Shown in pieces: positions 3,458 to 47,032 of a stretch of 48,871 nt of DNA. The translations under genes and the position numbers were made by a program. Below the pieces are notes generated by a model that saw nothing but the letters and a program-made list of their open reading frames with translations, made no database searches and was not told the DNA's origin. Numbering within the stretch: position 1 is the stretch's first letter; every line of letters starts with the position of its first letter. The DNA comes from an uncultured Candidatus Saccharibacteria bacterium (GTDB taxonomy: Bacteria; Patescibacteriota; Saccharimonadia; CAILAD01; GCA-016700035): positions 1-48,871 of the forward strand of contig CALKUN010000113.1 in NCBI GenBank assembly GCA_937996675.1, in the 5' to 3' direction.

Positions 3458-3486
3458 TTGACCAGCTCGAGAAGTCTCGCTATACT
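3458..3486 (+). promoter_or_regulatory. sigma70-type promoter of GC-rich cassette A
   Basis: TTGACC (3458-3463), a 17-nt spacer, then TATACT (3481-3486). It is divergent from the tRNA-fMet promoter. Confidence 0.6.
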
Positions 3487-3505
3487 AGCAACTCCGCTGA
3501 GAGAA

Positions 3506-3862
3506 ATGAGTGCACCTATGTCCACGTCCGTCCTGCTTACGCGCCGCGCAGATCTGCGCGACCGCCAACCGCACCCTGACCACTGCTTGCCGCACCCCGA
3601 CTGCTGCGGTGAGTGCGCTTGGGGCTTCGTCGACCCGTCGTCACCGGGCTACCAGCCAGGTCTTCCGCTTCCGGACGACATCAAGACCGCCTACGAGACC
3701 ATGCCGGGTGGCTACGACAGCCACTGCGGTGAGGTGCAGATCGTCCGGCACTGTGCCACCGGCGTGATCTACGCCATTCGCAACGGGCGACTGTACGTCG
3801 CCGACACCGAGTCCACGGCCTTCATCGGCTACCGCGAGGCCATGGGTCTCGTCGCTGCCTGA
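3506..3862 (+). CDS. GC-rich orphan protein A (Cys/His/Pro-rich N-terminal half), no family recognised
   Basis: ATG at 3506 lies in frame within track ORF 3458..3862, whose annotated TTG start is the -35 box itself. An alternative ATG is at 3518. Third codon positions are G/C-dominated, and a hand count of line 3601 gave about 70% G+C. Shadow ORFs occur on both strands. Contains HPDHCLPHPDCCGEC and HCGEVQIVRHC. Confidence 0.6.
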   Translation: MSAPMSTSVLLTRRADLRDRQPHPDHCLPHPDCCGECAWGFVDPSSPGYQPGLPLPDDIKTAYETMPGGYDSHCGEVQIVRHCATGVIYAIRNGRLYVADTESTAFIGYREAMGLVAA

Positions 3863-3866
3863 CCCT

Positions 3867-3911
3867 GTGCTCCCTGCCTCTATCACTGAGGTAGGGAGCA
3901 CAACCATTTTG
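3867..3911 (+). terminator. Hairpin terminator of cassette A
   Basis: 14-bp stem GTGCTCCCTGCCTC / GAGGTAGGGAGCAC (one G-T pair) with a 7-nt loop, followed by AACCATTTTGTT. Confidence 0.55.
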
Positions 3912-4076
3912 TTGACAAAATACTCAAAAGCTTATGCTTTACAGATAGGGCACCTGATGCTAGTATCGGGCATCACTTATTAACTTGTTCGTAAACCATA
4001 AGCAAACAGATATTCGGCAAAGGAGAGCGAGATTCGGGTTTTGTCGTCTATCAGCGAATGAAAAGGAGAAGGTACA

Positions 4077-6191
4077 ATGTCACACAGTATTCTAAAGGGG
4101 GGAATCGGAGTTCTGCTAGGATTGGCTGCCGCAACGGTAATTAGCTTCACCGCTTTTACCCCGCTCGTCACAGGCGCAACCTCGAACCTTGTTACTAATA
4201 ACTCATTTGAGACCAGTACTGCATCGTCAGCGACTGGTTGGGCACCTGTCCGATGGGGTAGCTCAACGGCTGCTTTCTCGATCAAGAATGAAGGACAGTC
4301 TGGCGGAAAGTCAGCTTACGTTCAGGTCTCAAACTATAAAAACGGTGATGCTAAGTGGGAACCAGCAGTTACTGCTGTCACTGGCGGAACCAAACTCCAG
4401 TATAGCGACTGGTACAAGAGCTCCGTCGCTACCGAAGTAAATGCCGAGATCACGCTTACCAACGGTAAAGTTCAGTATGTGTGGCTCGCTAATGCAGCTG
4501 CTAGCTCGACTACCTGGAAGAAACTGGCTGCTACTATCACGCTTCCTGCCAATGCTAAGTCGATCCGTGTCTACCATTTGATCGCCAAAAATGGCTGGCT
4601 CCAGACTGACAACTACGAACTCAGCGACGCAGTTGCAACACCAACAGTTGCTCCGACTGTTTCTGCGACGCCGACTCCGTCTGCTACCAAGACGCCAACC
4701 CCATCAGCTACAGCTGTTCCGACCAAGACACCGACTCCATCGGCGACAGTTACGCCAGTCCCGACCGTAGCTCCAACTGCCACCCCAAAGCCTTCTGCTA
4801 CACCGGTCCCGACCGCTGTCCCAACTGCTTCACCTTCGGTAACTCCAAAGCCGAGCGCTACTCCAGTGCCAACCGCTGTCCCGACAGTGACACCAACTCC
4901 TACTGCTACTCCAGTTCCGACAGTCGCCCCAACTGTTACTCCGGTACCAAGCACTACCCCAACTCCATCGGCCAACCTGATCCTGAACCCATCTATGGAG
5001 TCAGGTGACGCAACGACCATCATGAACTGGGTTGCTTCATACTGGGGTACGCTCACACCAGTCTTTTCGGTCAACACAGCTGGTGTACAGAACGGTACTC
5101 GTTCAGCTACCGTTACTGTGACCGCCTACACCGATGGCGATGCCAAGTGGGTATCTGACTCCGTGACCGTGCTGCCGAACACGACGTACACATTCAGCGA
5201 CTATTACAAAGCTACCGCCGGTACTCAGCTTGATGCTGCGATCACTGACACAGCCGGAGTCACTACGTACACATGGCTCGGTGACCTCCCAGCTGCAACA
5301 GCTTGGACCAAGGCCAGCGCTACCATCACTACTCCTGCCAATGCGTCCAAGATGACGATCTTCCACCTCATCTACAGCAACGGTACGCTCGAGATCGACA
5401 ACGCATCACTCACGACCGGAACACCTGTCGTGACGCCTACACCGACGCCAACTCCTACAACCACCCCAACGCCATCCAGCACACCGACACCAAGTCCTGG
5501 AGCACACGCACCGTTCTCACGGCCGCTGGCATCGATCGAGTTTGACGACGGTTGGACGTCTGCTTACATCAACGGCCTCCCAATTGTCCGAAGCTTCGGA
5601 TGGGTACCAACTCAGTACATCATCACGGACACGGCTGCAAACAATGCCAATTACGGTGCGGGTACATACATGACACCTGCGCAGATCAAGGACTGGGTAG
5701 CTAAGGGCGGAGACATCGGATCACATACAGTAGATCACTCTGACCTCGCTACGCTGACTCAGGCTCAGGTGACTGCCCAGCTCAGCACCAGCAAGAGCTA
5801 TCTCGAAACGCTCCTGAATCGCAAGGTTAATCTCTTCGCTACACCACTCTGTAGCGCGAATGCCACCGTTACTGCTGCGGCCAAGCTGTTCTACCAAGAC
5901 CTCCGCAACTGTGACAGCTCTACAAACTTCAAGGCGAGTTTTGATGCCTACAACGTACAGGACATCAACATCCTCTCTACGACTACCGACGCCGAGATCA
6001 TCTCGATCCTCAACGCTGCCAAGGCCAACAATGGCTGGGTAGACTTCACCTGGCACATGGTCGGCGGTACTGCAGGGGATACATACAATGTGACTCCAGC
6101 GCAGTTTACCCACCAGCTTCAGTTGATCAAGGATAGCGGGATCACTGTTCTCTCGACACAAGAAGCACTCAACGAGTCTCAGGGTAAGTAA
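4077..6191 (+). CDS. Secreted or anchored polysaccharide deacetylase (NodB domain) with two CBM-like beta-sandwich modules and Pro/Thr linkers
   Basis: Strong SD AAAGGAGAAGG and an N-terminal TM/signal segment. A module is duplicated (NxxxNxSFE...GDAKW...IRVYHLI / MTIFHLI). The C-terminal domain has FDDGW...HTVDHSDL, typical of NodB deacetylases. Confidence 0.8.
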   Translation: MSHSILKGGIGVLLGLAAATVISFTAFTPLVTGATSNLVTNNSFETSTASSATGWAPVRWGSSTAAFSIKNEGQSGGKSAYVQVSNYKNGDAKWEPAVTAVTGGTKLQYSDWYKSSVATEVNAEITLTNGKVQYVWLANAAASSTTWKKLAATITLPANAKSIRVYHLIAKNGWLQTDNYELSDAVATPTVAPTVSATPTPSATKTPTPSATAVPTKTPTPSATVTPVPTVAPTATPKPSATPVPTAVPTASPSVTPKPSATPVPTAVPTVTPTPTATPVPTVAPTVTPVPSTTPTPSANLILNPSMESGDATTIMNWVASYWGTLTPVFSVNTAGVQNGTRSATVTVTAYTDGDAKWVSDSVTVLPNTTYTFSDYYKATAGTQLDAAITDTAGVTTYTWLGDLPAATAWTKASATITTPANASKMTIFHLIYSNGTLEIDNASLTTGTPVVTPTPTPTPTTTPTPSSTPTPSPGAHAPFSRPLASIEFDDGWTSAYINGLPIVRSFGWVPTQYIITDTAANNANYGAGTYMTPAQIKDWVAKGGDIGSHTVDHSDLATLTQAQVTAQLSTSKSYLETLLNRKVNLFATPLCSANATVTAAAKLFYQDLRNCDSSTNFKASFDAYNVQDINILSTTTDAEIISILNAAKANNGWVDFTWHMVGGTAGDTYNVTPAQFTHQLQLIKDSGITVLSTQEALNESQGK
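4634..4972 (+). repeat. In-frame low-complexity Pro/Thr/Ala/Val linker with internal tandem units
   Basis: It encodes about 113 aa of TPTPSAT/PVPTAVPT units. PKPSATPVPTAVPT occurs twice. A second, shorter PT linker lies at about 5417-5500. Confidence 0.85.
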
Positions 6192-6208
6192 AGACGTACT
6201 AGTTCCCA

Positions 6209-6240
6209 CAAAAACACCCTCGAAAGAGGGTGTTTTTGTT
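6209..6240 (+). terminator. Intrinsic terminator after the deacetylase gene
   Basis: ACACCCTC-GAAA-GAGGGTGT followed by TTTTTGTTT. Confidence 0.8.
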
Positions 6241-9102: not shown

Positions 9103-10953
9103 ATGTTCAAGAAAATTCCTCGCAATTTCTGGTTCGCCATCATCGGTGTCGTCGTGCTCGTCGCGCTCCTTATCATCCCTGATGCCACTACCACAAAGCC
9201 GCAGTCTGTTTCTATCAGCCGCGTTATCGAGCAGGTAGACAAGGGCGAAGTCCAGAAGGTCGAAGTTTCGGGAGACAAGCTGACCGTAACGCTCAAGAGT
9301 GGCAGCAAAGAAGAAGCCTTCAAGGAAGCTGGCTCGACGCTCAAGGACTACGGTATTGATTCAGGCAAAGTCTTAATTGACCCGAAGAACCCCGACGACG
9401 GCTCGGGGCGATGGGTTGATGCGCTCTTTGCCTTCCTCCCGGTTGTTTTCATCATCGGCTTCTTCTGGTTGATCATGCGACAAGCCCAGGGGCAGAGCAA
9501 TGCCGCTATGAGCTTCGGACGATCCAAGGCTCGGGTGGCTGGTCTTGACCAAGAAAAGGTGACTTTTGGTGACGTCGCTGGCGCGCAAGAGGCTAAGCAA
9601 GAGCTCCAAGAGATCGTAGAGTTTCTCAAGTATCCAGCAAAGTTTGAAGCGCTTGGCGCGAAGATTCCTAAGGGAGCCTTACTGTTCGGATCGCCTGGTA
9701 CTGGTAAGACTCTCCTGGCTCGCGCAGTAGCCGGCGAAGCTGGCGTGCCATTCTTTTCAATCTCTGGATCTGAGTTTGTCGAAATGTTTGTCGGTGTCGG
9801 TGCGAGTCGTGTGAGAGATCTCTTTGCTAAGGCCAAGAAGAATGCTCCATGTATTATCTTCATCGATGAGATCGACGCTGTCGGACGGCAGCGTGGCACC
9901 GGTCACGGTGGCGGACATGATGAACGTGAACAGACCCTGAACCAGATTCTCACTGAGATGGACGGATTCGAGCAGGGAACAAACGTCATAGTGATGGCAG
10001 CAACCAACCGTCCTGACGTCCTCGATCCAGCCCTTCTCCGACCAGGTCGATTTGATCGACGCATCACGATCGATCCGCCAGATCGCAAGCAACGTGCTGA
10101 GATCCTCGAGGTTCATACCAAGGCTAAGCCACTTGAGAAAGGCGTTGATCTCGATCAGATTGCCGCCAAGACTCCTGGACTGTCTGGAGCAGATCTCGCT
10201 AATATCACCAACGAAGCGGCTATCTTCGCGGCTCGCAAGGACCGCAAGAAGATTCTTCAGAGTGACCTCAACGAAGCTGTTGAGAAGGTCGCCCTCGGGC
10301 CGGAGCGTAAGAGTCGCGTGATGAACGAGCAAGAGCGCAAGATCACTGCTTGGCACGAAGCCGGTCACGCTGTGCTCTCACACGTTCTGCCAAACTGCGA
10401 TCCAGTTCACAAGGTTTCGATTGTGTCTCGAGGTATGGCTGGTGGTGTAACGTGGTCACTCCCATTAGAAGACCGCAATTATCATTCAGTGTCAGACTTC
10501 CTCGACGACATCGCTATGAGTCTCGGTGGGCGTACGGCCGAGCAAATGATCTTCGGCGATATCACAACTGGAGCATCGTCTGACCTCCAGCATGCTAACG
10601 GTATCGCTCGTCGTATGATTATGGACTTTGGTATGGGGACTGGCGGACTCCGCAACCAAGTCTTTGGTGGAGAAGAGTCTTCATTCATGGGTCGATCATT
10701 CGGTGGTGAGAAGAACTTCTCCGAACAGACCCAAGATAAGATTGATGCAGAAGTGGCCCTCATCATGGCTGAAGCTACCAAACGTGCCGAAGCTACGCTC
10801 AAAGTCCATCGCAATAAGCTTGATGCGATTGCTGAGAAGCTTCTCAAAGAAGAGACCATTGAAGGTCCAGAGTTTGTAAAACTCTTTGAGAGCATCGATA
10901 AGGCCAAGAAGAAAGATCCGAAAGGTGTATCGCCCGTCACCGACGAAGTCTAA
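9103..10953 (+). CDS. ftsH: ATP-dependent zinc metalloprotease FtsH
   Basis: N-terminal TM pair, Walker A GSPGTGKT, the AAA second region of homology, and the HEAGH zinc motif. Confidence 0.97.
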
Positions 10954-11023: not shown

Positions 11024-11617
11024 CTAGCCGCTTGTCCTCTCCCAGAGCCTGAGAACGCAATCTTGCACAGTGATGCCATGCTGCTCTGACTCGAGAGCCA
11101 CCAGCCGAGTCCGCTGTTCGTTGATGAGATCCTGCAGCACCCTGTTGAGTCCGCTACAGATTTCTTGAGGCGAGATAAGGCCCATGCCCGAGAGGCTTTC
11201 TACAGTGCAGCCGTTTTGGCTGGGCGCGATGATCTTCACGACCTCACCCCCTTCATCCGTCCTCTCGTACTCAATCCACAAGGTTGACCAGGTGGCATCC
11301 TCTTTGAGCTGTATGACGGTGAGGTTGTGCGTGGAGGCAATGGACGCAGGCATTGCGCGCGTGCTGGGAGCCAGCATGTAGATGCCGCGCTTCCCGGACC
11401 ACTCTGCCAGTCGTCCGGACAATCGCATTGGGCAAAGGCTGCCTCGCTGGTTGGTGAGTAGCTTCAAGGAGCCAAGGGTAGGGAACCGGTACTTTTCAAG
11501 AAGCCCCACCATGGTCTTGGCTCGTAGCTCGGCGAGCTGGATCCATTCTTCTGGGGTGAACGCACGCCGTTCTGATGGCATGAGAAAATCAATTTGATCT
11601 AGGGTAGATTGAGGCAT
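11024..11617 (-). CDS. Moderately GC-rich orphan protein B (197 aa), no family recognised
   Basis: ATG at 11617 is preceded by GAGCGAGGA. The longer track ORF (to 11896) would overlap the murJ start and its own promoter. Composition is visibly richer in G/C than the flanks. Confidence 0.55.
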   Translation of the reverse strand: MPQSTLDQIDFLMPSERRAFTPEEWIQLAELRAKTMVGLLEKYRFPTLGSLKLLTNQRGSLCPMRLSGRLAEWSGKRGIYMLAPSTRAMPASIASTHNLTVIQLKEDATWSTLWIEYERTDEGGEVVKIIAPSQNGCTVESLSGMGLISPQEICSGLNRVLQDLINEQRTRLVALESEQHGITVQDCVLRLWERTSG

Positions 11618-11674
11618 TCCTCGCTCTTTCTTTTTGGCCTTCGAGGCAGTCCTCTCCGGCGGGTGCGGACCTAA

Positions 11675-11703
11675 ATTATGCAATAGTATCGAGTAGCGCT
11701 CAA
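11675..11703 (-). promoter_or_regulatory. sigma70-type promoter of cassette B
   Basis: On the minus strand TTGAGC (11703-11698), a 17-nt spacer, then CATAAT (11680-11675). Confidence 0.5.
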
Positions 11704-11720: not shown

Positions 11721-11749
11721 TTGGCACTAAGAGTCCTACAGGGTAGAAT
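11721..11749 (+). promoter_or_regulatory. sigma70-type promoter upstream of murJ leader
   Basis: TTGGCA (11721-11726), a 17-nt spacer, then TAGAAT (11744-11749). Confidence 0.6.
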
Positions 11750-11770
11750 AGGTGCAGAGTTTAGAACTGT

Positions 11771-11815
11771 GAGGTCGCGGAAATACGGGTAGCCCGTCCG
11801 CGACTCCATTTTTTT
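11771..11815 (+). terminator. Promoter-proximal intrinsic terminator-like hairpin in murJ leader (attenuator or short sRNA)
   Basis: GAG(G)TCGCGGA ... TCCGCGACTC stem with an inner CGGG-TAG-CCCG hairpin, followed by CA-TTTTTTT. It lies about 15 nt after the predicted TSS and 16 nt before the murJ ATG. Confidence 0.5.
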
Positions 11816-11831
11816 ATGATCGATACTATTT

Positions 11832-30288: not shown

Positions 30289-30337
30289 AGCTTTCTTAGC
30301 TGTTGCTGGCTTACGTTCGTGACGGTGTAGATAATAC

Positions 30338-34979: not shown

Positions 34980-34987
34980 TTCCAGAT

Positions 34988-37312: not shown

Positions 37313-37368
37313 GACGATACTCCCGGTAACCGTCAAAAGAACCTCTTTTCTATCGTAGGGTGCTGATA

Positions 37369-37383
37369 CTTGTAGAATACAAG
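37369..37383. promoter_or_regulatory. Perfect inverted repeat in the WhiB-like / ruvA divergent intergenic region
   Basis: CTTGTA-GAA-TACAAG. It overlaps a possible TTGTAT -35 for the WhiB-like gene, with TACGAT 19 nt downstream on the minus strand. Confidence 0.35.
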
Positions 37384-37413
37384 ACCGGTCATGCTCTCCA
37401 CAAGGGGATAGTT

Positions 37414-37442
37414 TTGGCTTGTGTTCGCTGTACCGGTATAAT
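37414..37442 (+). promoter_or_regulatory. sigma70-type promoter for ruvA-ruvB
   Basis: TTGGCT (37414-37419), a 17-nt spacer, then TATAAT (37437-37442), 7 nt before ATG 37450. Confidence 0.6.
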
Positions 37443-37449
37443 GGGAGGA

Positions 37450-38010
37450 ATGATTGCATTACTACAGGGTGAGGTAGTTTCGAAGGGGAGTGATAGTCTC
37501 ACGCTTCTGGTTGGTGGTGTTGGATATGACCTCGCAGTACCGAGCCGTGATATGCACCACTTGGCACTTGGCGAGCTTCAAACCTTCTATGTTGCCGAGC
37601 AGATTCGCGAAGATGCCTATGACCTCTATGGGTATATGGAAGAGGCTGAGAAACGGCTGCATTTCAAGCTCGTGACGGTGCAGGGGATAGGGCCACGCAT
37701 GGCGCACGCTATTCTGTCGGTCTATGACGCAGCGACGTTTGCGGAGATCATCGAACATGAAGACTTAGTGCGACTCGGTCAAGTATCTGGGGTGGGCAAG
37801 AAGACTGCTCAACGCATGTTGCTCGACCTCAAGGGCAAGCTCGTTGACGTAGCGAGCGGCGAAGGCATGGTGAGTGATGATCCGGCTCTGATGGCGCTCG
37901 TACAGCTCGGCTTTAGCCGTGATCAGGCGAGTCAGTCACTGAAGAATATTGATAGCACGCAGCCCACCAGCGAGCGAGTGCGTGAGGCGCTGAAGGGGAT
38001 ACAGGGATGA
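37450..38010 (+). CDS. ruvA: Holliday junction helicase subunit RuvA
   Basis: [10 protein letters not shown]-terminus, HhH motifs ([24 protein letters not shown]), and a C-terminal domain III. Confidence 0.93.
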
Positions 38011-39053
38011 TCGAGCGACCAGCTGAAGAGCTACGCCCCGAAGCACTACCAACTGACGATGTGGTCGTCGAAGAGACACTGCGTCCGCGAGCCTTTGATG
38101 ATTACGTTGGTCAGCGTCAGGCGATTGACTCGCTGAAGGTGGCTATCCAGGCAGCCAAGCAGCGTGGCGATGCGCTGGACCATGTCTTACTCTATGGTCC
38201 TCCAGGGCTCGGGAAGACGACGCTGGCACATATCGTGGCCAACGAAATGGGCGCACAGCTGAAGATCACATCTGGCCCGGCCATTGAGCGAGCCGGCGAT
38301 CTGGCTAGTCTCCTTACGAACCTGAATGAAGGCGATATGCTTTTTATCGACGAAATTCACCGGCTGGGACGAACGGTCGAGGAGATACTCTATCCAGCGA
38401 TGGAAGATTATGCGATCGACATCATGCTTGGCAAGGGACCATCAGCTCAGTCACTACGACTCGACTTGCCGCCGATTACTATCATCGGTGCCACCACCCG
38501 GTATGGCGCGCTGTCTGGACCGCTGCGCGATCGCTTCGGGCTCATCCATCGACTAGAGTTCTACAAGCCGGAAGAAATCGCTCAGATCCTGACGCGTTCG
38601 TCGAAGTTGCTGAACGTAGAGATTGAGCCAGAGTCTCTCACGATGTTGGCTGCTCGCTCCAGGCTCACTCCACGTATTGCAAATCGACTTATCAAACGAG
38701 TGCGAGATTATGCCGAGGTGCACAATAAGGGTCAAGTCGATGCGACGTCTCTTGACTCTGCCTTGGGTCTTCTGGAAATTGATGCACTTGGCCTCGATAG
38801 CTCTGACCGCCGTCTCCTCCAGACGCTCGTCGATCACTACCAAGGTGGTCCAGCCGGCGTCGAAGCGCTTGCCGCCGCTCTGTCTGAAGAGCGCCAGACG
38901 ATTGAGGATGTGATTGAACCGTATTTGATCCAAGTCGGGCTCCTCAAACGCACAACCCGGGGCCGTCAATTGAGCAATCAAGGCTGGAAGCATCTTGGGT
39001 ATACGCCGCCTACCCCGGACGTCGCCCAGCCCTCGCTCGATCTTGAGGAATAA
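38007..39053 (+). CDS. ruvB: Holliday junction helicase RuvB
   Basis: LRP..FDDYVGQ, Walker [10 protein letters not shown], and DEIHRL. ATGA overlap with ruvA. Confidence 0.97.
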
Positions 39054-39067
39054 GCTAAGATAACTGT

Positions 39068-39697
39068 ATGCAAGAACGACCCGAAGCCTGTACATTTCCC
39101 GGCCAGGACGACGATGAAGTCGTCCAGATTCTCATCTACAAGCATATCTTCTCTGTCTTGCCGGTGTTTGTCGTATCGATAGCTACCTTCATCGGCGGGT
39201 TGTTTCTCCTGGCCTACGCGGCATCCGGCGCTGCCTTACGCATCCCAAGCGACTTCGGGGCAACCGGCTCGACGGACACGATTGGTTTTCCGCTCATCAC
39301 ATTGAGTTTAATCATTATAGTCATTGGAGTGTTGCTTGGAGTCGGCGCGCTGTATGTCTGGCGACAGAATAAGATGCTCATCACGAATGAGAATGTGGTT
39401 GATATTGATCAGCACGGGATATTCGGCCGCGTGATCTCTACTCTCCGACTCAGCCGCGTGCAGGACGTCACCGTTCAGGTGAAGGGGCCGATGCAGACAA
39501 TGTTCAAGTATGGCACGATCAATATCCAGACAGCTGGTGAGAAAGACCTGTTTGAGTTTGATTATGTACCCGATCCATACGAGGTGAAGGCGCGAGTTCA
39601 GGATCTCTTCGAAAAGTTTGTTGAGAACAAGCCGCATGAAGGCGATGGTGTGCGGCACACCAAGACCCTGGACGAAGAAGCACTGGTTGACGAATAG
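39068..39697 (+). CDS. Bacterial PH domain (bPH_2 / YdbT-like) membrane protein
   Basis: Two TM helices are followed by ITNENVVDIDQHGIFGR...VQDVTVQ...GTINIQTAG, typical of bPH_2/DUF304. Confidence 0.7.
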   Translation: MQERPEACTFPGQDDDEVVQILIYKHIFSVLPVFVVSIATFIGGLFLLAYAASGAALRIPSDFGATGSTDTIGFPLITLSLIIIVIGVLLGVGALYVWRQNKMLITNENVVDIDQHGIFGRVISTLRLSRVQDVTVQVKGPMQTMFKYGTINIQTAGEKDLFEFDYVPDPYEVKARVQDLFEKFVENKPHEGDGVRHTKTLDEEALVDE

Positions 39698-39716
39698 ACC
39701 TTACAAGGCTTGAACT

Positions 39717-39744
39717 AAAAATGACCGCCAGGAGCGGTCATTTT
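39717..39744. terminator. Bidirectional terminator between the PH-domain gene and the pilin gene
   Basis: AAAA-ATGACCGC-CAGGA-GCGGTCAT-TTT. Confidence 0.75.
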
Positions 39745-39765
39745 AGTAACGTACCATTTTGGGGT

Positions 39766-40188
39766 CTACTGAGAGCTAGTTATTTCGTATGTACGACTAT
39801 TGTTAGCATTAGATTTGATATCCTTGTCGTTTTCATACTCGAGGGTAGTTTGGACTGTATAGCTCGAATAAGTTGGTCCGCCAGCTGGGGCTGGAGTATA
39901 GGTGTAGTCTTTGCCCGTCTTCGGGTCTTGTGGCACCGAAGGAATGTACCCGGCTGAGCCAGCTGTGAGCGCGCTGAGTGCGGCTGGGTAGTTTGAGTTG
40001 TCGTTGTAGTATTGCTCAAGACCATCCTTGATCGAGCGGAGGTCGGCTTTGCGTCGTGCATCACGCGCTCGAGCTGGTCCAGCGATGAGGTTTGGTAGTA
40101 CGAGTAAAAGTAGGATGCCGATAATGACGACGACGATCAAGAGTTCGAGGAGGGTAAAACCCTTTTGTTTATGAAGACCAAATAGCAT
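39766..40188 (-). CDS. Type IV pilin / pseudopilin with prepilin-type N-terminal methylation motif
   Basis: KGFTLLELLIVVVIIGIL prepilin cleavage/methylation signature after a short leader. Confidence 0.9.
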   Translation of the reverse strand: MLFGLHKQKGFTLLELLIVVVIIGILLLLVLPNLIAGPARARDARRKADLRSIKDGLEQYYNDNSNYPAALSALTAGSAGYIPSVPQDPKTGKDYTYTPAPAGGPTYSSYTVQTTLEYENDKDIKSNANNSRTYEITSSQ

Positions 40189-40248
40189 GGTGTGGCAACG
40201 CTCCGGTGTGTATTAATAGTGGATATTCGTAATCGAAAGCTAGTATGG

Positions 40249-40278
40249 ATTATAAGCGCTTATGATTAGGTCAGTCAA
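40249..40278 (-). promoter_or_regulatory. sigma70-type promoter for the pilin gene
   Basis: On the minus strand TTGACT (40278-40273), an 18-nt spacer, then TATAAT (40254-40249). Confidence 0.5.
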
Positions 40279-40295
40279 TCAAGAGCCAGCTGTGG

Positions 40296-41810
40296 CTAGG
40301 TGGCAGCTAGAGGAATGATCTCTTCAGCTGTAGTCATACCTTGGAGTGCTTTGATGAATCCATCTTCCTGCAGAGTTAACATCCCGTCATTGGCGGACTT
40401 CTTCTGAATGTCCTCAGCTGTGGCGCGCTCCGTAACGAGCTTAATGATGTGAGGCGTTACATCAAGTACTTCAAAGACGCCGACACGTCCGAAATAGCCC
40501 GTCATGCTGCACTGGGTACAACCTTTGGCCCGATAGAGCTTGAGATCTGAAGGGCTATAGTTGCGACCACTAGATTTAAACTTGGCATGCTTAGACGCTT
40601 CGTCATCATCATTGATCCCGGCACGCTCAATGAGGCTGGGGTCGGCTGCGATGCGGTCCAGGATGCCGCCGCGATCGGTGACGAGATCATCTGGCACGGG
40701 AATAGTCTTACGGTTCTCGCCGTTAGCATTCTTGTTTGTGCGAGAGTTCTCCTCGGACAAAGCCGGAAGGCTGTCAGGATAGTCACCTGTGTCTTCAAGC
40801 GAGTGGAAGACTTCGATGGCGCGGTGAATCGGGAAAGACTCTCCGATACGTGCTAGTTCATCCGTTGATACGGTGTATGTCTCTCGACAGTCGGGGCAAA
40901 GTCTACGCACGAGCCGTTGAGCAACGACTGTCTTGACTGATGTCGCTACAACAAAAGGCTCAACGTTCATATTGATGAGATGAGGAAACGCACTGGCAGC
41001 ATTCTTGGTGTAGAGTCCGGCAAAGACGGGGTGACCACTCATAGTAGCCTGCATGGCAAGATTGGCAGTCTCGTTGTCTCGGAGTTCCCCAACCATAATG
41101 ACGTTTGGATCTTGGCGCAACACAGCGCGGAGTGAGTTGGCAAACGACATGCCACTGCGGGTGTCGACCTGCACTTGGTTGATCCCTGGGACAGCATACT
41201 CGACCGGGTCTTCGATCGTAGAGATGTTGGCATCTTTGGCGTTGATGGCGCCAAGCATGGAATACAGCGTGGTCGACTTGCCTGAGCCAGTCGGTCCGGT
41301 GACGATGGTCATACCTTGGCCACGCTTGAGCTGATGTTCGATCTCGTGTAGGGCGGGTGTGGCGATGCCGAGGTTATCAAGAGGGCGGATCTTACTGGCA
41401 TCATCGAGAATGCGAATGACCACCTTTTCACCGCCTACGACTGGCAGAACTGAGATACGAGCTTCGATAGTTTCGCTCCCGATCGTGTACTTGAGGCGAC
41501 CGTTCTGAGGTACTACACATTCGTCGGCTTTGAGCTGCGCCATGAGCTTGATGCGGCCGGTGACGGCTGGAGCAATCTGATGAGGCACGGTCATAACATC
41601 CCTTAGTGTGCCATCGATACGAAATCGTACCTGGACGAGGGTTTCGTGTGGTTCGATATGAATATCGGTGGCCCGTGTGTCGTGAGCTTGTTGCAGGATC
41701 AAGTCTACTGCCTGGGTGATGGGCGCATCCACAGGTGTCTCAGCTGGCACGGGCGGTGCGGCTGTGGCTATCTTTACTGGGGCTGGGAGGGGGAGATTAG
41801 CGGGCGACAT
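40296..41810 (-). CDS. pilB: Type IV pilus assembly ATPase (PilB/GspE family)
   Basis: Walker A GPTGSGKST, Asp box, Walker B VIMVGELRD, His box, and a tetracysteine motif (CPDC...CTQC). Confidence 0.92.
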   Translation of the reverse strand: MSPANLPLPAPVKIATAAPPVPAETPVDAPITQAVDLILQQAHDTRATDIHIEPHETLVQVRFRIDGTLRDVMTVPHQIAPAVTGRIKLMAQLKADECVVPQNGRLKYTIGSETIEARISVLPVVGGEKVVIRILDDASKIRPLDNLGIATPALHEIEHQLKRGQGMTIVTGPTGSGKSTTLYSMLGAINAKDANISTIEDPVEYAVPGINQVQVDTRSGMSFANSLRAVLRQDPNVIMVGELRDNETANLAMQATMSGHPVFAGLYTKNAASAFPHLINMNVEPFVVATSVKTVVAQRLVRRLCPDCRETYTVSTDELARIGESFPIHRAIEVFHSLEDTGDYPDSLPALSEENSRTNKNANGENRKTIPVPDDLVTDRGGILDRIAADPSLIERAGINDDDEASKHAKFKSSGRNYSPSDLKLYRAKGCTQCSMTGYFGRVGVFEVLDVTPHIIKLVTERATAEDIQKKSANDGMLTLQEDGFIKALQGMTTAEEIIPLAAT

Positions 41811-41923
41811 ACTTACATATATTTTAGCATAAGGGGGATAGATAGTTGCCTACGAAACTGCATGCGCTTTACTTTCGGTTTTGGGTGCGACTATTATCAC
41901 CGTATAACGAGGGGAGGGGAAAT

Positions 41924-43222
41924 ATGAAGCCGGGATATATCAAGTATGGCCTGATGATCGGTGCCCTGTTCTTTTCAGGAGGTGCCGTCCAGCACGTCTC
42001 TGCAGCATCTGATCCCTCCTCGCTACTTATTCAATCGGTACAGCTTGGATCGGGCGCCGATGCAACTGACGAATATGTCAGGGTTATCAATACCAGCACG
42101 CAGTCGGTCGAAACTAAGGGACTCACTATCGAGTATAAGGCCGCGACTGGCACCTCGTGGGCCAAAAAAGCGTCAGTAGGTGAGAGCCATGTACTCTCCC
42201 CTGGCGCCACGCTTACTGTGGCGAGTAAGCAGGCTCACGATGTACCACTCACGGCCGGGCTCGCTCAAGCCGGCGGTAATCTTCGGCTCGTTCTGACCTC
42301 TAAAACTTTGGACCAGCTCGCGTGGGGTAAGGGGGATAGCCCGGAGGGAAAAGCCATCTCGGCTCCAGCTATCGGCCAAACGATCGATAGGGTCTGTACG
42401 GTCACTTGTCAGGACACGAACGACAATAGTGCGGATTTTGAACTGAGAGGCACTGCAGATGGTAGCGTTCGGGTAGAGCCTGTGTCGCTCGATGATGCCT
42501 CGGCTGCATACTCAATTGAGATAACAGAGCTCTTCCCTGATCCAGCGAGCCCACAGACTGATGCGCAGGATGAATATATCGAGATCTTTAATGCTGGGGA
42601 TCGGACAGCTATTCTTGTCGGCTGGAAACTGGTGAGTGGTAAGCAGTCTTATAAGCTTGATGGCGTACAACTGACGGCTGGTCAGTATCTGGCGCTCAGC
42701 TCGGCTACGACAAAGCTTGGTCTGACCAATACTGGTGACACAGTCTCACTTCTCGATGCGTCTGGAGGCGAAGTCATGACAACGCCAAACTATGCAGCTG
42801 CAAAGTCTGGCAAGTCCTTCGGTGTGACGGATGGCGGCTGGGCTTGGCTGGATCATCCAACACCAAGTGCAGTGAACGCCGGGGTACTCATGGAAGGGCT
42901 GGTGCCCGAGAAGACGCCGAAAACAACTGACAAAAAAGCCACAACTACCAAGAAAGCAACCGCTAGCTCCAAGGCTACTTCGGCAAAATCTGTCTCCAGC
43001 GCGGTCAAAGAAGCAGCCAAGTCTACCTCCACTGAGGGTGATTCGGAGTCTTCAACAACCTTCTCGAGTGGATGGGTGCTGGCTATCTTGGGGATATTCG
43101 CGATAGGATATGGGGTATATGAATACCGACCAGAACTTCTCAGTCTCTACACACGGCTCCGAGCAAAGTCTCAAGCTGGGCGAGAGCCTGTCAAAAATTC
43201 TCAAGCTGGGCGACGTCGTTGA
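41924..43222 (+). CDS. Surface protein with two lamin-tail domains (LTD) and a C-terminal TM anchor
   Basis: Signal peptide, then two LTD-like repeats (DEYVRVINTS...; ITELFPDPASPQTDAQDEYIEIFNAG), a Ser/Thr/Lys-rich stalk and a TM helix. The start is set at ATG 41924 after GGGGAGGGG. Confidence 0.75.
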   Translation: MKPGYIKYGLMIGALFFSGGAVQHVSAASDPSSLLIQSVQLGSGADATDEYVRVINTSTQSVETKGLTIEYKAATGTSWAKKASVGESHVLSPGATLTVASKQAHDVPLTAGLAQAGGNLRLVLTSKTLDQLAWGKGDSPEGKAISAPAIGQTIDRVCTVTCQDTNDNSADFELRGTADGSVRVEPVSLDDASAAYSIEITELFPDPASPQTDAQDEYIEIFNAGDRTAILVGWKLVSGKQSYKLDGVQLTAGQYLALSSATTKLGLTNTGDTVSLLDASGGEVMTTPNYAAAKSGKSFGVTDGGWAWLDHPTPSAVNAGVLMEGLVPEKTPKTTDKKATTTKKATASSKATSAKSVSSAVKEAAKSTSTEGDSESSTTFSSGWVLAILGIFAIGYGVYEYRPELLSLYTRLRAKSQAGREPVKNSQAGRRR

Positions 43223-43601
43223 GCTCGTCGGTGACCTCGGTGGCGGCAAGACCACGCTGGCCAAGGGCATTGCTGCAGGCATTGGCGTAATCGAGACAGT
43301 GACAAGCCCGACCTATAACATTCAGCGATCATACAAGATACCAACGGGTGGCTTGCTCGAACACTATGATCTCTACCGCCTGGGCGACGATGAGATCTTG
43401 CTCGACGAAATGCGTGAAGTGATTGAGGCCAAAGACGCGATCATAGTGGTCGAGTGGGCCGATCACTTCCAGCAGCATCTCATTGAAGACCGCTTCGTCG
43501 TGAATATTACCTTTGTGGATGACGACACACGAGAAGTGAAGATTGAGGCAACGGGGCCATCGACGAGTGAACGACTCGCGAAGCTGGAGTACACGGCATG
43601 A
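43110..43601 (+). CDS. tsaE: tRNA t6A biosynthesis ATPase TsaE
   Basis: GDLGGGKTTLAKGI P-loop and HYDLYRL motif. An alternative ATG is at 43119. It overlaps the LTD gene by more than 100 nt. Confidence 0.88.
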   Translation: MGYMNTDQNFSVSTHGSEQSLKLGESLSKILKLGDVVELVGDLGGGKTTLAKGIAAGIGVIETVTSPTYNIQRSYKIPTGGLLEHYDLYRLGDDEILLDEMREVIEAKDAIIVVEWADHFQQHLIEDRFVVNITFVDDDTREVKIEATGPSTSERLAKLEYTA

Positions 43602-43990
43602 TCCTGGCACTCCGCACCGATAAGCCTGAGGCAGAACTGCATCTACTTGATGTGAGTGGTGCTGAAGTAGCTACTTACTCCTGGGAGGCTCATCGCACGC
43701 TGGCTGCTACGCTCGTCGGTAAGATTGGTGAGTTTCTCGAGGAGAATAAAACGTCTACCAAAGAGCTCACAGGTCTCATAGTCTTCACTGGTGCGGGCTC
43801 ATTTACTGGTCTGCGTATCGGTACAACTGTCGCGAATGCGCTGGCATATTCAAATGAGATCCCAATTGTCGCAGGAGAAGGCGATGGGTGGATTATGGAT
43901 GGCTTGAAGAAATTACCTGGCGCCAAGCTCGAGCAGTACGTCATCCCGACCTATGATCGCGAACCAAATATCACGAAGCCAAAGAATTGA
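43598..43990 (+). CDS. tsaB: tRNA t6A biosynthesis protein TsaB (short, 130 aa)
   Basis: GAGSFTGLRIGTTVANALAY motif. ATGA overlap with tsaE. Confidence 0.85.
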   Translation: MILALRTDKPEAELHLLDVSGAEVATYSWEAHRTLAATLVGKIGEFLEENKTSTKELTGLIVFTGAGSFTGLRIGTTVANALAYSNEIPIVAGEGDGWIMDGLKKLPGAKLEQYVIPTYDREPNITKPKN

Positions 43991-43998
43991 TCACTAAT

Positions 43999-44832
43999 AT
44001 GAGCTCAGAACCCTCCTCTCTCGCCGCACCATTACTTGATCCGCGTATCCTACCTATCGGGTCCATTGTCCGCATGGATGCTGACGGCTACTTTCCTGAT
44101 AGCATTGGGCATCATCCCGTTACTTCGCCGTGGGATCAGCCGGCGCAAGAACTGGTTGCGGAATACAATGAGCGGTTGGGCAGTAGTCTACATAGTCTGT
44201 ACCTACGCGGCTCGCTCATCCGAGGTACGGCCATAGAAGGGGTGTCCGATGTTGATCTGTTGCTGCTTGTAGACGGGGATGCAGCCATCATCGATTGGAG
44301 TTGGCTCAGGCCTTTCCACGTCTCGCTTACAAAAAAATATCCATTTATGAATGGCGTAGATCTTGGAATTAACAACCTAGACCGCGTACTGAATGGTGAG
44401 AACAAAACCCGAGCCTTCTTGCTGAAGGTTATGTCAGAGTGTATCCAAGGAGAAGACATTCGTGGGCAACTGCCGCGCGTTAAGCTCGGACGCGATGCAC
44501 TCATTGCGCGTTGGCAATTTCGCGAAAGAACCAGCCCTGATTTCCTTGCTGGTAGCAAGGCAAGTCTTGAGGATCGAGTGAGCTTGATAGGCAAGCAAAT
44601 AGTTCGCGCTGGCATGGAGCTCGTGATGGAAGAGGAGGGGTACTACTCGCGGGATCTCTATCCTTGCTATGAGACTTTTGCGCGACATTATCCAGAAAAA
44701 GCCACCGTGATGGCGCGGGCTCTCACCCAAGCACTTTTTTCAGCCGAGAGCGAGGCTGACTTTGCTGAAATGCGCGATGACATTAGCCCGTGGCTCGCCA
44801 ATGAGCTTGATAAGAAGTATCCTGAACTATAG
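43999..44832 (+). CDS. Nucleotidyltransferase-domain protein (ANT/AadA-like architecture)
   Basis: LYLRGSLIRGTAIEGVSDVDLLLLV matches the GS-x(n)-DxD minimal nucleotidyltransferase fold. A helical C-terminal domain follows. Confidence 0.6.
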   Translation: MSSEPSSLAAPLLDPRILPIGSIVRMDADGYFPDSIGHHPVTSPWDQPAQELVAEYNERLGSSLHSLYLRGSLIRGTAIEGVSDVDLLLLVDGDAAIIDWSWLRPFHVSLTKKYPFMNGVDLGINNLDRVLNGENKTRAFLLKVMSECIQGEDIRGQLPRVKLGRDALIARWQFRERTSPDFLAGSKASLEDRVSLIGKQIVRAGMELVMEEEGYYSRDLYPCYETFARHYPEKATVMARALTQALFSAESEADFAEMRDDISPWLANELDKKYPEL

Positions 44833-45267
44833 TTGAGATAGTATTTTCTGGATATCTCTCTTAAAATTGGTGGGACTAATCCATTCAGTCTGGTTATCAG
44901 CATCTTTCTGCATATGCTCCATGAGATTAAGGAAGCAATATTCAGAAACATGTTCCGTGGTGGTAATCTGACTTTCATCGACTGTGACCCGATATACCAG
45001 CCAGAGGAGGTGCTGTCGCTCTTCAACATTTGCCCAAGGAGTGACGAGTATGGGCAGCGGTTCGATCTCGCCGCTACAACCGATCTCCTCAGTGAGCTCT
45101 CGATGCAATCCATCTATCGGATCTTCTCCCCAATCTAGTCCGCCACCTGGGAGATCCCAGTCGCGACCATTCTCTCGAACCATGAGCACTTGGCAGGCTT
45201 CGTTGGTGATGAGTGCACGTACCGAGACTCGGTAGTAGCAGTTGGGGATGTCTGGACCTAGCTTCAT
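44827..45267 (-). CDS. NUDIX hydrolase
   Basis: Nudix box GGGLDWGEDPIDGLHRELTEEIG. Confidence 0.88.
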   Translation of the reverse strand: MKLGPDIPNCYYRVSVRALITNEACQVLMVRENGRDWDLPGGGLDWGEDPIDGLHRELTEEIGCSGEIEPLPILVTPWANVEERQHLLWLVYRVTVDESQITTTEHVSEYCFLNLMEHMQKDADNQTEWISPTNFKRDIQKILSQL

Positions 45268-45347
45268 CTTACTAGTATATCCTGGAAATAGGTTTGCGAC
45301 ACGGGAGTAGCCAGGCTAAAATACTCTGGAACGAAAGGTATAAAAGA

Positions 45348-45680
45348 ATGAACTTTAAACGCGTAAAAATATCCATCAATGTTCCGGCCGAGGCGACTGC
45401 AAAAGTACAGGAAGCGCTTGGAGAAGCCGGTGCAGGTGTGATCGGCGAGTATTCATTCTGTAGCTTTGTCATCAAGGGCACAGGATATTCGATACCAAGC
45501 GACAAGGCTCATCCATATAAGGGCTCTGCTAACCAGCTGGAAGTATCGGATGAGGACCGCCTCGAAGTAATCTGTGATCGAGATAAGGTACATGCTGCAA
45601 TCGACACCATGAAGGCTGTCCACCCTCACGAAGAGGTGGCTTTTGATATTGTGCCGCTCTTGAGTAGGGAAGATATTTAG
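45348..45680 (+). CDS. Stand-alone NIF3/YqfO cap-domain-like (PII-fold) protein
   Basis: VKISINVPAEATAKVQEALGEAGAGVIGEYSFCSF...GTG and AVHPHEEVAFDIVPL resemble the inserted domain of Nif3-family proteins. Confidence 0.55.
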   Translation: MNFKRVKISINVPAEATAKVQEALGEAGAGVIGEYSFCSFVIKGTGYSIPSDKAHPYKGSANQLEVSDEDRLEVICDRDKVHAAIDTMKAVHPHEEVAFDIVPLLSREDI

Positions 45681-46019
45681 ATGCCCGAGATCACCTACGA
45701 CAACTTTGCTGCGGTGGATATCCGTGTGGGAAAGATCGTGGCGGTCGAAGACTTTCCAGAAGCTCGCAAGCCAGCTTATAAGCTGACGGTCGATTTTGGT
45801 GACGAGATTGGTACGAAGCGATCCAGTGCTCAGCTTACTAAGCACTACACAAAGGAAGACCTCAAAGATCGACTCGTTCTCGGCGTAGTAAACTTTCCGC
45901 CACGACAAATCGGACCATTCATGAGTGAATGTCTGACACTCGGCGTACCAGACGAAACGGGCGAGTGTGTTCTTGTGCAGCCTGACACGGGCGCCGTAAT
46001 AGGCGGAAAGCTCTACTAA
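45681..46019 (+). CDS. tRNA-binding domain protein (CsaA/YgjH-like)
   Basis: F..VDIRVGKIV.VE.FPEARKPAYKL.VDFG...SSAQ pattern of CsaA/EMAP-type OB folds. Confidence 0.85.
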   Translation: MPEITYDNFAAVDIRVGKIVAVEDFPEARKPAYKLTVDFGDEIGTKRSSAQLTKHYTKEDLKDRLVLGVVNFPPRQIGPFMSECLTLGVPDETGECVLVQPDTGAVIGGKLY

Positions 46020-46492
46020 TGCATCTCTACAAACTACTCATCTTCGATTGGGAAGGGTGCCTGGTTCAGCTTGGCGCCAAGGCCGAGCTATCCGATGGTG
46101 TGGAGGAGTTTCTCAAAAAGCTTCACTCGGATGGTGTGAAGCTAGCTATTGTGACAAACGGCGGCACCGCCCAGTTTGATCGCCCAGCCGAGTTTGCTGC
46201 GCTCAAACCGCTCTTCGCGACTATCATTACCGCCCATGATGTTGAGCGATCTAAGCCACACCCTGAAGGTATAGAAAAAATATTGACTCAATTGGACCTC
46301 ACGCCAGATGATGCACTTATGGTGGGGGATACAGAACGAGACATTATGGCTGGACGGACTGCAGGACTCGATACGGCACTATATTTACCAGATCAGAACG
46401 CGGCTTCTTATCAGGATAAGGATATTGGACAGCTTGATCCCACATATACCTTTCGTAGCTTTGCAGAGCTCAAGTCACTCATATTGGTCTAA
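46019..46492 (+). CDS. Short HAD-superfamily hydrolase
   Basis: Motif I-like FDWEG, motif III/IV VGDTERDIMAGRTAG. 157 aa. TAATG overlap with the upstream gene. Confidence 0.65.
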   Translation: MHLYKLLIFDWEGCLVQLGAKAELSDGVEEFLKKLHSDGVKLAIVTNGGTAQFDRPAEFAALKPLFATIITAHDVERSKPHPEGIEKILTQLDLTPDDALMVGDTERDIMAGRTAGLDTALYLPDQNAASYQDKDIGQLDPTYTFRSFAELKSLILV

Positions 46493-46497
46493 AACCA

Positions 46498-46526
46498 TTG
46501 ACAAATAGGCAATAACATGCTATTAT
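46498..46526 (+). promoter_or_regulatory. sigma70-type promoter of GC-rich cassette H
   Basis: TTGACA (46498-46503), a 17-nt spacer, then TATTAT (46521-46526). Confidence 0.6.
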
Positions 46527-46562
46527 GTCTGGTATCCGTTTACCGACGAAAGGCTTCCCCCT

Positions 46563-46694
46563 ATGTCACACACGGAAGACAAGAAAGCACCGCAGCACAA
46601 GTCGTCCTGGCCGAAAGGCCTTGTCGTCCTGGGCAGCAACTCTTGGGGTCGCGAAGCCCCTCTCAACACGCATTCCCCGTACCAGCCGAAGTAA
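46563..46694 (+). CDS. Possible 43-aa upstream ORF within the cassette H leader
   Basis: The unlisted ORF MSHTEDKKAPQHKSSWPKGLVVLGSNSWGREAPLNTHSPYQPK has fairly high G/C at third positions but only a weak GAAAGG 13 nt upstream. Confidence 0.3.
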   Translation: MSHTEDKKAPQHKSSWPKGLVVLGSNSWGREAPLNTHSPYQPK

Positions 46695-46734
46695 TTCCCT
46701 TCATTCCCCACATTTCTACACGGAGGTAGAATAC

Positions 46735-46965
46735 ATGCGCAAGCGCCAGACCAAGCCCACCGCCCACCCCACTTCTCTCGACACGTTGAGCTACCGGCTC
46801 CTCTGTTTCGGTCGTCGGGCCAACCAGGTGGCGTCCATGCCGTTCCATCCGAAGCGGGTCGACCTGACCCAATTCGCGGAGCCCGCGATCCATCGCTCGC
46901 CGTCCTTCGGTGACGACCCGCACGTCGTGGTCAGGCTCAGTCAGCGTGACCTCGTCTTGGCCTAG
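46735..46965 (+). CDS. GC-rich orphan protein H (76 aa), no family recognised
   Basis: GGAGG SD 8 nt upstream of the ATG. Third codon positions are almost all G/C. The in-frame upstream part of track ORF 46525 lacks that bias. Confidence 0.55.
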   Translation: MRKRQTKPTAHPTSLDTLSYRLLCFGRRANQVASMPFHPKRVDLTQFAEPAIHRSPSFGDDPHVVVRLSQRDLVLA

Positions 46966-47012
46966 CCAAGACAACCCCTTCCGGGTCCCCATTCTCGCCA
47001 CACGGCCAGAAA

Positions 47013-47032
47013 GGGGACCCGTCCCCATTTTT
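47013..47032 (+). terminator. Terminator-like hairpin after cassette H
   Basis: GGGGA-CCCG-TCCCC followed by ATTTTT. An alternative longer pairing is GGGTCCCC (46983) with GGGGACCC (47013). Confidence 0.45.

Follow-up and report, generated by a model that had tools for sequence, protein, structure and literature searches.

What makes a few genes G+C-rich in a chromosome of balanced composition, and where did they come from? The question is raised by a contig of 48,871 nucleotides from an uncultured Candidatus Saccharibacteria bacterium (CALKUN010000113.1, GenBank assembly GCA_937996675.1), referred to here at its full length as the window, in which eight open reading frames (ORFs) of raised G+C content lie between conserved genes. 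They are named ORF1 to ORF5, the MATCAP-like gene, the WhiB-like gene and ORF8 (Table 1). Saccharibacteria rely on Actinobacterial hosts of high G+C content and import DNA, gene flow from host to epibiont is mostly inferred, and ORFans are usually AT-rich. The original prediction, made by reading the letters of the window, held that a Saccharibacteria-like epibiont had captured these genes piecemeal from Actinobacteria or their phages and domesticated them, and that they could act in host manipulation or phage interference. The set of loci provides concrete test cases for host-to-epibiont gene flow, and the most interesting concrete results are a hypervariable MATCAP-like gene without its catalytic motifs and a WhiB gene found throughout a clade. 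Existing ideas are not overturned, and the earlier account by horizontal gene transfer is weaker than it looked.

The compositional contrast is real. The window as a whole has a G+C content of 0.527, and its backbone, represented by 42 genes, has a mean G+C content at third codon positions (GC3) of 0.553 with a standard deviation of 0.046 and a maximum of 0.659. All eight ORFs exceed this range, with G+C contents of 0.57-0.66 and GC3 values of 0.68-0.86 (z = 2.7-6.6 against backbone GC3); six are strong outliers and two, ORF2 and the WhiB-like gene, only mild ones. The G+C-richness expected of them is thereby confirmed, at a lower level than the 65-70% of the initial hand counts, since the computed contents are 57-66%. 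Peaks of a sliding G+C profile coincide with the eight ORFs, and the rise and fall lie no more than about 60 nt from the ORF ends, except at ORF8. The proteins differ accordingly: K/(K+R) is 0.11-0.29 in the eight products against 0.51 in the backbone, arginine being favoured over lysine, and the products are enriched in G, A, R and P and depleted in F, Y, M, I, N and K. Their G+C contents at the first, second and third codon positions (GC1, GC2, GC3) and their use of arginine for lysine are close to the expectation for a genome of 60-65% G+C. Long shadow ORFs, once thought confined to the G+C-rich places, are found in the backbone too (22926-23576 and 9757-10368, both minus strand, are examples). 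No Pfam match was obtained for shadow ORFs, whether antisense or in another frame, so the idea of a gene captured out of frame found no support in this search, although Pfam is a weak test for it.

The eight ORFs are residents of the chromosome. The nearest relatives in a species-representative collection are Candidatus Saccharibacteria metagenome-assembled genomes with RimK proteins 68-78% identical, in agreement with the predicted organism. Exact proteins of seven of the eight ORFs are present in public collections, in clusters of 5-24 variants from NCBI, JGI, ENA and Logan, and the gene orders around them recur in dozens of independent assemblies from these four sources at 98-100% nucleotide identity. 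Within the species, all sampled strains carry the same gene set in the five slots examined. Variant proteins keep their exact lengths, as do all 15 variants of ORF3, which speaks for genuine coding genes. The pattern can practically be dismissed as the outcome of chimeric assembly, contamination or engineered insertion: the junctions recur intact in the independent assemblies, and the loci are thus not assembly artefacts. The one contig that speaks for an artefact is L050 (ENA ERZ650265 NODE_9297), of low coverage (2.2), which is 100% identical to the window from 26700 down to 24340 and then switches inside ORF4 to sequence of 67% G+C encoding CorC/HlyC and DUF21-like proteins. This contig is almost certainly a chimeric assembly; its junction points to the presence of a high-GC organism in the sample and shows that G+C-rich tracts can seed chimeras. 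The ORFs are species-fixed accessory genes of a Saccharibacteria chromosome.

Two of the eight, and not the WhiB-like gene alone as first supposed, belong to known families. The 429-residue product of the MATCAP-like gene has no direct Pfam match. A word-based search with it returned three clusters of 99, 77 and 46% identity, while an exhaustive HMMER search with a profile of the protein and two relatives recovered 195 representatives. The family PF08014 (MATCAP, formerly DUF1704) is matched by 46 of 51 aligned relatives (best E = 3e-31), and the family profile matches human MATCAP (PDB 7z5g, E = 1.3e-5); as it is the relatives that match PF08014, family membership is transitive rather than direct. 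A structural model made by AF2 (AlphaFold2) from the family alignment reached a predicted local distance difference test score (pLDDT) of 93.6 and a predicted TM-score (pTM) of 0.91. In Foldseek its only high-probability matches were the chains of human apo MATCAP 7z5g (probability 0.99-1.0, E = 7e-3), with TM-scores of only 0.33-0.41. The label of orphan accordingly holds for six ORFs, and fails for the WhiB-like gene and for this one, which also has orthologues in the same slot.

These orthologues, 28-33% identical, lie directly downstream of RimK in L013, L016, L018, L019 and L032, which places the gene in the RimK/Mur-ligase neighbourhood and makes it old in the clade. In the window it directly follows the RimK operon, where one of the three RimK-type ligases matches both Pfam RimK and RimB-like. 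Relatives L013-L023 retain RimK-type genes at this locus, and several also retain the Mur-ligase-like gene. In gene content, the operon together with a zincin resembles a system for ligating peptides or poly-amino acids that has a carboxypeptidase as its partner. The window protein resembles the MATCAP/DUF1704 family (PF08014; human MATCAP, PDB 7z5g) in profile homology, fold match, similar length and the common genomic association with RimK-type ATP-grasp ligases; it differs in lying below Pfam significance, in its replaced motifs and in its hypervariability between strains.

The replaced motifs are the catalytic ones. Where the family has HE(I/V)G(T)H..RR and GEEG, the window protein has V-RLRLTVER and AGPA; it shares with P0110, P0111, P0112 and the L055 allele the readings V/A-RLRL-x-x-E/Q-R and AG-P/L-A/G, whereas more distant Saccharibacteria orthologues keep HE..H and EEG. 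With HExxxH and GEEG replaced, the protein is a pseudo-peptidase and not a zinc peptidase. Among the dead alleles, conservation is highest in the segment of the former cleft, DAYVLMxRLRL...NGTVxDLxAG...VVEQ, a pattern that suggests a new constraint rather than decay. The gene would thus descend from a MATCAP/DUF1704 zincin accompanying a RimK/Mur-ligase peptide-ligase operon, having lost its metal and catalytic residues while the former cleft was kept conserved.

The same gene is exchanged between strains. Downstream of an identical 302-residue RimK, contigs show the MATCAP-like gene in at least three allele classes: the window type of 429 residues, a type of 430 residues in L054 that is 82% identical to the window protein, and a type of 431 residues in L055 and L057 that is 46% identical to it. 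A fourth class, P0111, shares 46% identity with the window protein and 56% with the L055 type. In a sliding comparison with the window, L055 is 100% identical up to about 29400, 81-97% in the last RimK gene and 51-75% inside the MATCAP-like gene; at the terminator (31700) it returns to exactly 100% and stays there over 700 nt or more. In L054, identity to the window is 68-80% toward the 5' side of the gene and reaches 100% from position 31500, which marks L054 as an intragenic recombinant. The slot between RimK and the IGPS-like gene is a recombination-driven hypervariable locus in which alleles 46-82% identical sit within 100%-identical flanks, and the exchange takes place by homologous recombination within one species background. 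The palindrome at the end of the gene forms the right-hand boundary of the variable tract, and many short-read contigs end exactly there. All three allele classes downstream of the identical RimK are G+C-rich (GC3 0.76-0.78), and two alleles from short contigs have GC3 values of 0.63 (P0111) and 0.72 (the frameshifted P0112). The latter comes from L049 (Logan SRR28161540, gene 93-1382), an L055-type allele with a frameshift after about residue 307 that stays open to nearly full length, so that gene callers report a protein of 429 residues. The other slots hold the same set of genes in every sampled strain, with no alternative alleles. Swapping of this kind would be expected of a binding or recognition protein under diversifying selection, and a MATCAP-like protein without catalytic motifs, linked to an operon of RimK peptide ligases and exchanged as alleles only 46% identical, is a test case in its own right.

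The second gene with a known family is WhiB-like. Its product matches PF02467 with 30.0 bits (cut-off 23.6, E = 7.5e-7) and also matches PHROG WhiB families, and the four-cysteine pattern C...C-x2-C-x5-C is present in the translation (C28, C49, C52 and C58). The G[VI]WGG turn that in this family follows the cysteine cluster is absent; the sequence at this position is ...NTMVDMRSGMKP... Canonical WhiB genes (72-92 bits) lie on the minus strand between ruvC and ruvA in L013, L015, L017, L019 and L023, that is, in all ~50% G+C relatives examined that cover this slot, from which it follows that the gene was gained before that clade diversified. L017 has two tandem canonical copies in the slot (11416-11676 and 11736-11993, minus strand). 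Between strains, the window gene shows nonsynonymous to synonymous changes of 7/4 and 3/4. Compared with the WhiB-like (Wbl) family, it is alike in its Pfam match above the gathering threshold, its four cysteines and its small size; it differs in residing in Saccharibacteria rather than in an Actinobacterium or actinophage, in the loss of the GVWGG-type turn, in scoring 30 bits where its own orthologues score 72-92, and in its raised nonsynonymous to synonymous ratio. By its sequence, it is a degenerate, fast-evolving derivative of a clade-wide predicted Fe-S transcription factor. WhiB genes are usually taken to be confined to Actinobacteria and actinophages. Titles and abstracts of the literature yielded no paper on WhiB in Saccharibacteria or Patescibacteria, and a clade-wide WhiB gene in a fixed ruvC/ruvA slot is a further test case.

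The places where these genes sit are themselves informative. As predicted, the ORFs occupy intergenic slots whose flanking genes were all verified by Pfam or ARAGORN: tRNA-Met and a polysaccharide deacetylase, FtsH and MurJ, DnaJ and a membrane protein, RimK and the IGPS-like gene, RuvC and RuvA, and HAD and YmdB. In relatives of 39-40% G+C, the dnaJ/membrane slot is empty and the ruvC/ruvA slot is a spacer of 68-109 bp. In ~50% G+C relatives, the dnaJ/membrane slot contains other small minus-strand ORFs, unrelated in sequence, with GC3 values 0.05-0.2 above their backbones. ORF3 to ORF5 are missing from all relatives examined, and their slot is empty in L020-L022. Slots that are empty or differently filled among relatives are real sites of gene gain. 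No integrase or transposase is found among the annotated genes of the window and no repeat family flanks the eight ORFs, in line with the earlier reading. Conserved flanks, the lack of mobility genes and contents that differ between lineages make the slots resemble the minimal mobile elements of naturally transformable bacteria (Neisseria-type), as do the competence and type IV pilus genes of the window (Table 1), and the slots may act as such sites. Exchange of inserts by homologous recombination in the flanks is seen here for the RimK/IGPS-like slot only. The window further differs from these elements in that only one slot holds alternative alleles within the species, which are diverged forms of the same gene, while differences in slot content occur only between genera.

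Composition and slots leave the origin of the G+C excess to be weighed. A capture that was recent and piecemeal, from Actinobacteria or actinophages and followed by domestication under native promoters, is quite improbable. Part of that proposal stands, namely the foreign-looking composition, the native-like promoters, the missing mobility genes and the slots as sites of gene gain. It would also accommodate a high-GC, host-like composition without a sign of amelioration (GC3 at or above the value predicted from GC1), the presence of competence genes, and a WhiB gene, which is typical of Actinobacteria and their phages and has PHROG counterparts. The recent date and the donor, however, find no backing. 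A tblastn search of the ORFs against 50,697 phage and 72,556 plasmid records gave nothing (the query was concatenated, which inflates E-values roughly tenfold through its length), IMG/VR contained no relative of ORF1, ORF4 or the 429-residue family, the three queries run, and the match of the WhiB-like protein to an actinophage WhiB is marginal (31% identity, E = 0.07). Against 5.8 billion proteins, ORF4 matched only its own 90% cluster and one chimeric contig, which leaves it without a relative beyond the species. Fixation of the genes extends to all strains sampled, and two of them, the MATCAP-like and the WhiB-like one, are positional orthologues of long standing. L010, whose RimK differs at 54% of fourfold degenerate sites, carries a 77%-identical MATCAP-like allele with the same GC3 of 0.78, and all deeply diverged allele classes of known context are G+C-rich.

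An older event is easier to reconcile with these observations. The composition of the ORFs is that of a source of 60-65% G+C, so that they most likely go back to high-GC DNA that was taken up, presumably by transformation, and recombined into the chromosome. The source was plausibly Actinobacterial hosts, and the event would lie long ago, being neither recent nor piecemeal; at least two genes, the MATCAP-like and the WhiB-like one, would already have been in place before the ~50% G+C clade diversified. We tentatively favour such an old acquisition from a high-GC source into slots accessible to recombination, followed by long residence, while giving it somewhat less than an even chance. A genome-wide drive is excluded as the cause of a GC3 of 0.78, since the backbone is at compositional equilibrium: its polarised fourfold-site changes number 62 from A/T to G/C and 55 in the reverse direction, and the implied equilibrium G+C at fourfold sites (GC4) is 0.575 against a current 0.546.

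Several observations weigh against acquisition from outside, however old. Searches of phages, plasmids, viral contigs and large protein collections yielded no donor homologue; the last were queried with ORF4 and the 429-residue protein only, and Actinobacterial genomes were not searched at the DNA level. The ORFs keep idiosyncratic codon choices of the backbone (CTC over CTG, CGA at 0.22, GGT at 0.28), and their G+C-rich tracts end almost exactly at the ORF boundaries, unlike a raw foreign fragment. In the ORFs, GC1 is below and GC3 above the prediction of simple amelioration. The MATCAP-like gene is G+C-rich in most of its diverged alleles (GC3 0.72-0.78, but 0.63 in P0111), and even its catalytically intact orthologues in other lineages have GC3 values about 0.05-0.11 above their backbones. 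As this excess persists although synonymous sites are saturated, it looks like maintenance rather than the decaying signature of a donor. A stricter argument, that equal GC3 in the window and L010 at saturated RimK sites makes amelioration impossible, does not hold, as a fourfold-site model can be solved with an ancestral GC4 of 0.85. Two further measures do not discriminate. The 46 polarised single-nucleotide polymorphisms (SNPs) in the G+C-rich ORFs, 21 toward G/C and 25 toward A/T, are compatible with both decay and stationarity, and the dinucleotide distance delta* places the ORF set at 42-56 from Myxococcota loci of 69% G+C and at 61-67 from its own backbone.

The signs of maintenance are what a local process would leave. 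The ORFs could be native, fast-evolving genes without any foreign donor, in which GC-biased gene conversion at transformation-driven recombination hot spots, or selection for C/G-ending codons through expression or mRNA, raises and holds the G+C content; we regard this as an unlikely but serious alternative. The shared codon choices and the compositional steps at the ORF ends fit it well. So does the MATCAP-like gene: its placement is vertical, with at least five relatives sharing the slot, its locus has proved to be a recombination mosaic, and its GC3 lies above that of the backbone in all lineages and allele classes seen (in the relatives 0.58-0.67, with backbones at 0.53-0.56). The shift is mostly from T to C at third positions, and DnaK, likely the most highly expressed of the backbone genes, has the highest C/(C+T) of the backbone, 0.73. 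The ORF SNPs imply an equilibrium G+C of 0.59 against a current 0.63 and thus no clear decay, but with only 46 SNPs this test is underpowered and does not differ significantly from the backbone expectation. The other G+C-rich ORFs lack allele exchange or excess diversity in the sampled strains, the flanks beside the hot spot are not enriched in G+C, and the shift from lysine to arginine together with the G-ending purine codons exceeds translational selection. To our knowledge, a GC3 excess of 0.23 is also far above known effects of biased conversion in bacteria. A more far-reaching version, in which the excess is actively maintained in diversifying genes of a competent epibiont and the dead MATCAP-like gene is a frequency-dependent recognition or interaction factor whose alleles cross species boundaries, is improbable.

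The comparison with horizontally acquired islets in the amelioration framework of Lawrence and Ochman is divided. The ORFs share with such islets the deviation in GC3 and amino acid usage and the location at operon boundaries, and one, ORF1, alone among the eight, adjoins a tRNA gene. Their patchy distribution among relatives is seen for ORF3 to ORF5 and not for the MATCAP-like and WhiB-like genes. They differ in being single genes without integrase, repeats or mobility signature, in tracts trimmed to the ORF, in having no identifiable donor and no detectable amelioration signal, and in that at least two have been resident since before the clade diversified and are still G+C-rich. Searches of the literature yielded no paper on G+C-rich islets in Saccharibacteria. 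Six G+C-rich ORFans that stay G+C-rich prompt one to ask whether composition can serve to date, or even to infer, transfer in these genomes.

Table 1. Positions of the eight G+C-rich ORFs, their putative expression signals and neighbouring features in the window; promoter-like sites come from a consensus scan.
Feature	Position	Strand	Composition	Remarks
ORF1	3506-3862	+	G+C 0.66, GC3 0.81	118 aa, Cys-rich; 114 aa from ATG 3518 in public gene calls
ORF2	11024-11617	-	G+C 0.57, GC3 0.68, z = 2.7	197 aa; no family match
ORF3	23540-23935	-	G+C 0.59, GC3 0.71	131 aa; species-restricted ORFan
ORF4	24049-24504	-	G+C 0.64, GC3 0.80	151 aa; species-restricted ORFan
ORF5	24661-25038	-	G+C 0.65, GC3 0.81	125 aa; species-restricted ORFan
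MATCAP-like gene	30412-31701	+	G+C 0.63, GC3 0.78	429 aa
WhiB-like gene	36947-37312	-	G+C 0.61, GC3 0.68	121 aa
ORF8	46735-46965	+	G+C 0.65, GC3 0.86	76 aa; least certain coding call of the eight
Promoter-like site, ORF1	3458-3486	+		TTGACC-17-TATACT; consensus match only; 20 nt upstream of ATG 3506
Promoter-like site, ORF2	11703-11675	-		
Promoter-like site, ORF4	24568-24540	-		
Promoter-like site, ORF5	25107-25078	-		
Predicted promoter, MATCAP-like gene	30338-30366	+		TTGATT-17-TATAAT; core conserved across diverged alleles
Promoter-like site, ORF8	46498-46526	+		TTGACA-17-TATTAT with TG; ~210 nt upstream of ORF8
Terminator-like hairpin, ORF1	3866-3902	+		15-bp stem; scan
Predicted terminator, ORF4	24039-24012	-		scan
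Predicted bidirectional terminator	31717-31754			perfect 38-nt palindrome; common to the convergent MATCAP-like and IGPS-like genes
Terminator-like hairpin, ORF8	47013-47026	+		transcript end; scan
RimK operon	25724-30288	+		Mur-ligase-like gene and three RimK-type ATP-grasp ligases; Pfam
tRNA-Met genes (two)	400-475, 3296-3371	-		ARAGORN/Pfam annotation
comEC	33573-34979			competence
Pilin gene	39766-40188			type IV pilus
Type IV pilus ATPase gene	40296-41810			type IV pilus

Expression signals surround most of the ORFs. Seven had been credited with promoters, and most with a Shine-Dalgarno motif and a terminator; the scan places promoter-like sites at six of the eight, Shine-Dalgarno-like motifs are readable 5' of seven, and terminators follow four, but region-wide counts of promoter-like and terminator-like sites do not exceed chance and only their placement is suggestive. 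Transcription of the ORFs from predicted promoters that are AT-rich and native-like is supported by the sequence. Each ORF may then form a monocistronic unit, consisting of a native AT-rich promoter, a Shine-Dalgarno motif, the G+C-rich frame and a hairpin terminator, wedged between conserved operons.

The six ORFans have no match in Pfam, PHROG, NCBIfam or PADLOC and would be small cytoplasmic proteins. The exact ORF1 protein is in the public collection with 11 variants, and its context of ATPase/tRNA-Met, ORF1 and deacetylase is the same elsewhere. The exact 197-residue sequence of ORF2 is not in that collection, which leaves its start codon uncertain. All 15 cluster variants of ORF3 have exactly 131 residues despite up to 10% amino acid divergence, and the gene is present in every strain that carries an identical neighbouring membrane protein. 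A single-sequence model of ORF5 (pLDDT 63) shows a beta-alpha-beta-beta-alpha core with a disordered tail, and this low-confidence model has no convincing fold match. Similarity between ORF4 and ORF5 amounts to a single weak match of 29 residues (E = 0.002).

ORF8 raises the question of whether structured non-coding RNAs, and not proteins, are the products of some G+C-rich tracts, in particular of 46533-47030. The transcript around the ORF, roughly 500 nt long and closed by a hairpin, is G+C-rich, as is the leader of roughly 200 nt before the ORF. This transcript folds with z = -3.06, and the 9/5 nonsynonymous to synonymous changes against strain L045 indicate weak protein constraint. No Rfam family matches the ORFs, however, even at E <= 0.5, and the values of GC1/GC2/GC3 (0.64/0.47/0.86) are of a coding type that favours the plus-strand frame over an antisense ORF of 121 residues (0.72/0.53/0.62). 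With a GGAGG Shine-Dalgarno motif before ORF8 and exact lengths kept across variants of the other ORFs, an RNA explanation appears very improbable.

Several other features were observed. Perfect or near-perfect hairpins of 20-21 bp (360-405 and 3256-3297) lie directly downstream of both tRNA-Met genes and are probably terminators. The deacetylase gene (4077-6191) contains degenerate repeats of 33-46 nt at 4641-5468 with CC/AC-rich codons that look like a Pro/Thr-rich linker; they coincide with strong negative GC skew and raised G+C at 4600-5800, unrelated to the G+C-rich ORFs. In relatives, the yebC/ruvC slot contains genes of raised GC3 (0.57-0.73) that are absent from the window (L013 15542-17590, L015 14710-16712, L023 14551-16721 and L032 14698-16890). 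Window positions 43983-45346 are an insertion relative to the 97%-identical strain L045, also present in strain L078, and encode a nucleotidyltransferase-domain protein (43987-44832, plus strand) and a NUDIX hydrolase (44827-45267, minus strand). Its G+C is ordinary (~0.50), so that accessory DNA of this genome is not always G+C-rich. SNP density between strains, compared for window 26380-30300 and 33573-46500 with L001, L002, L045, L048 and L054-L060, is strongly mosaic, with zero-difference blocks beside blocks 5-19% diverged (for example RimK3 in L055), indicating frequent homologous recombination.

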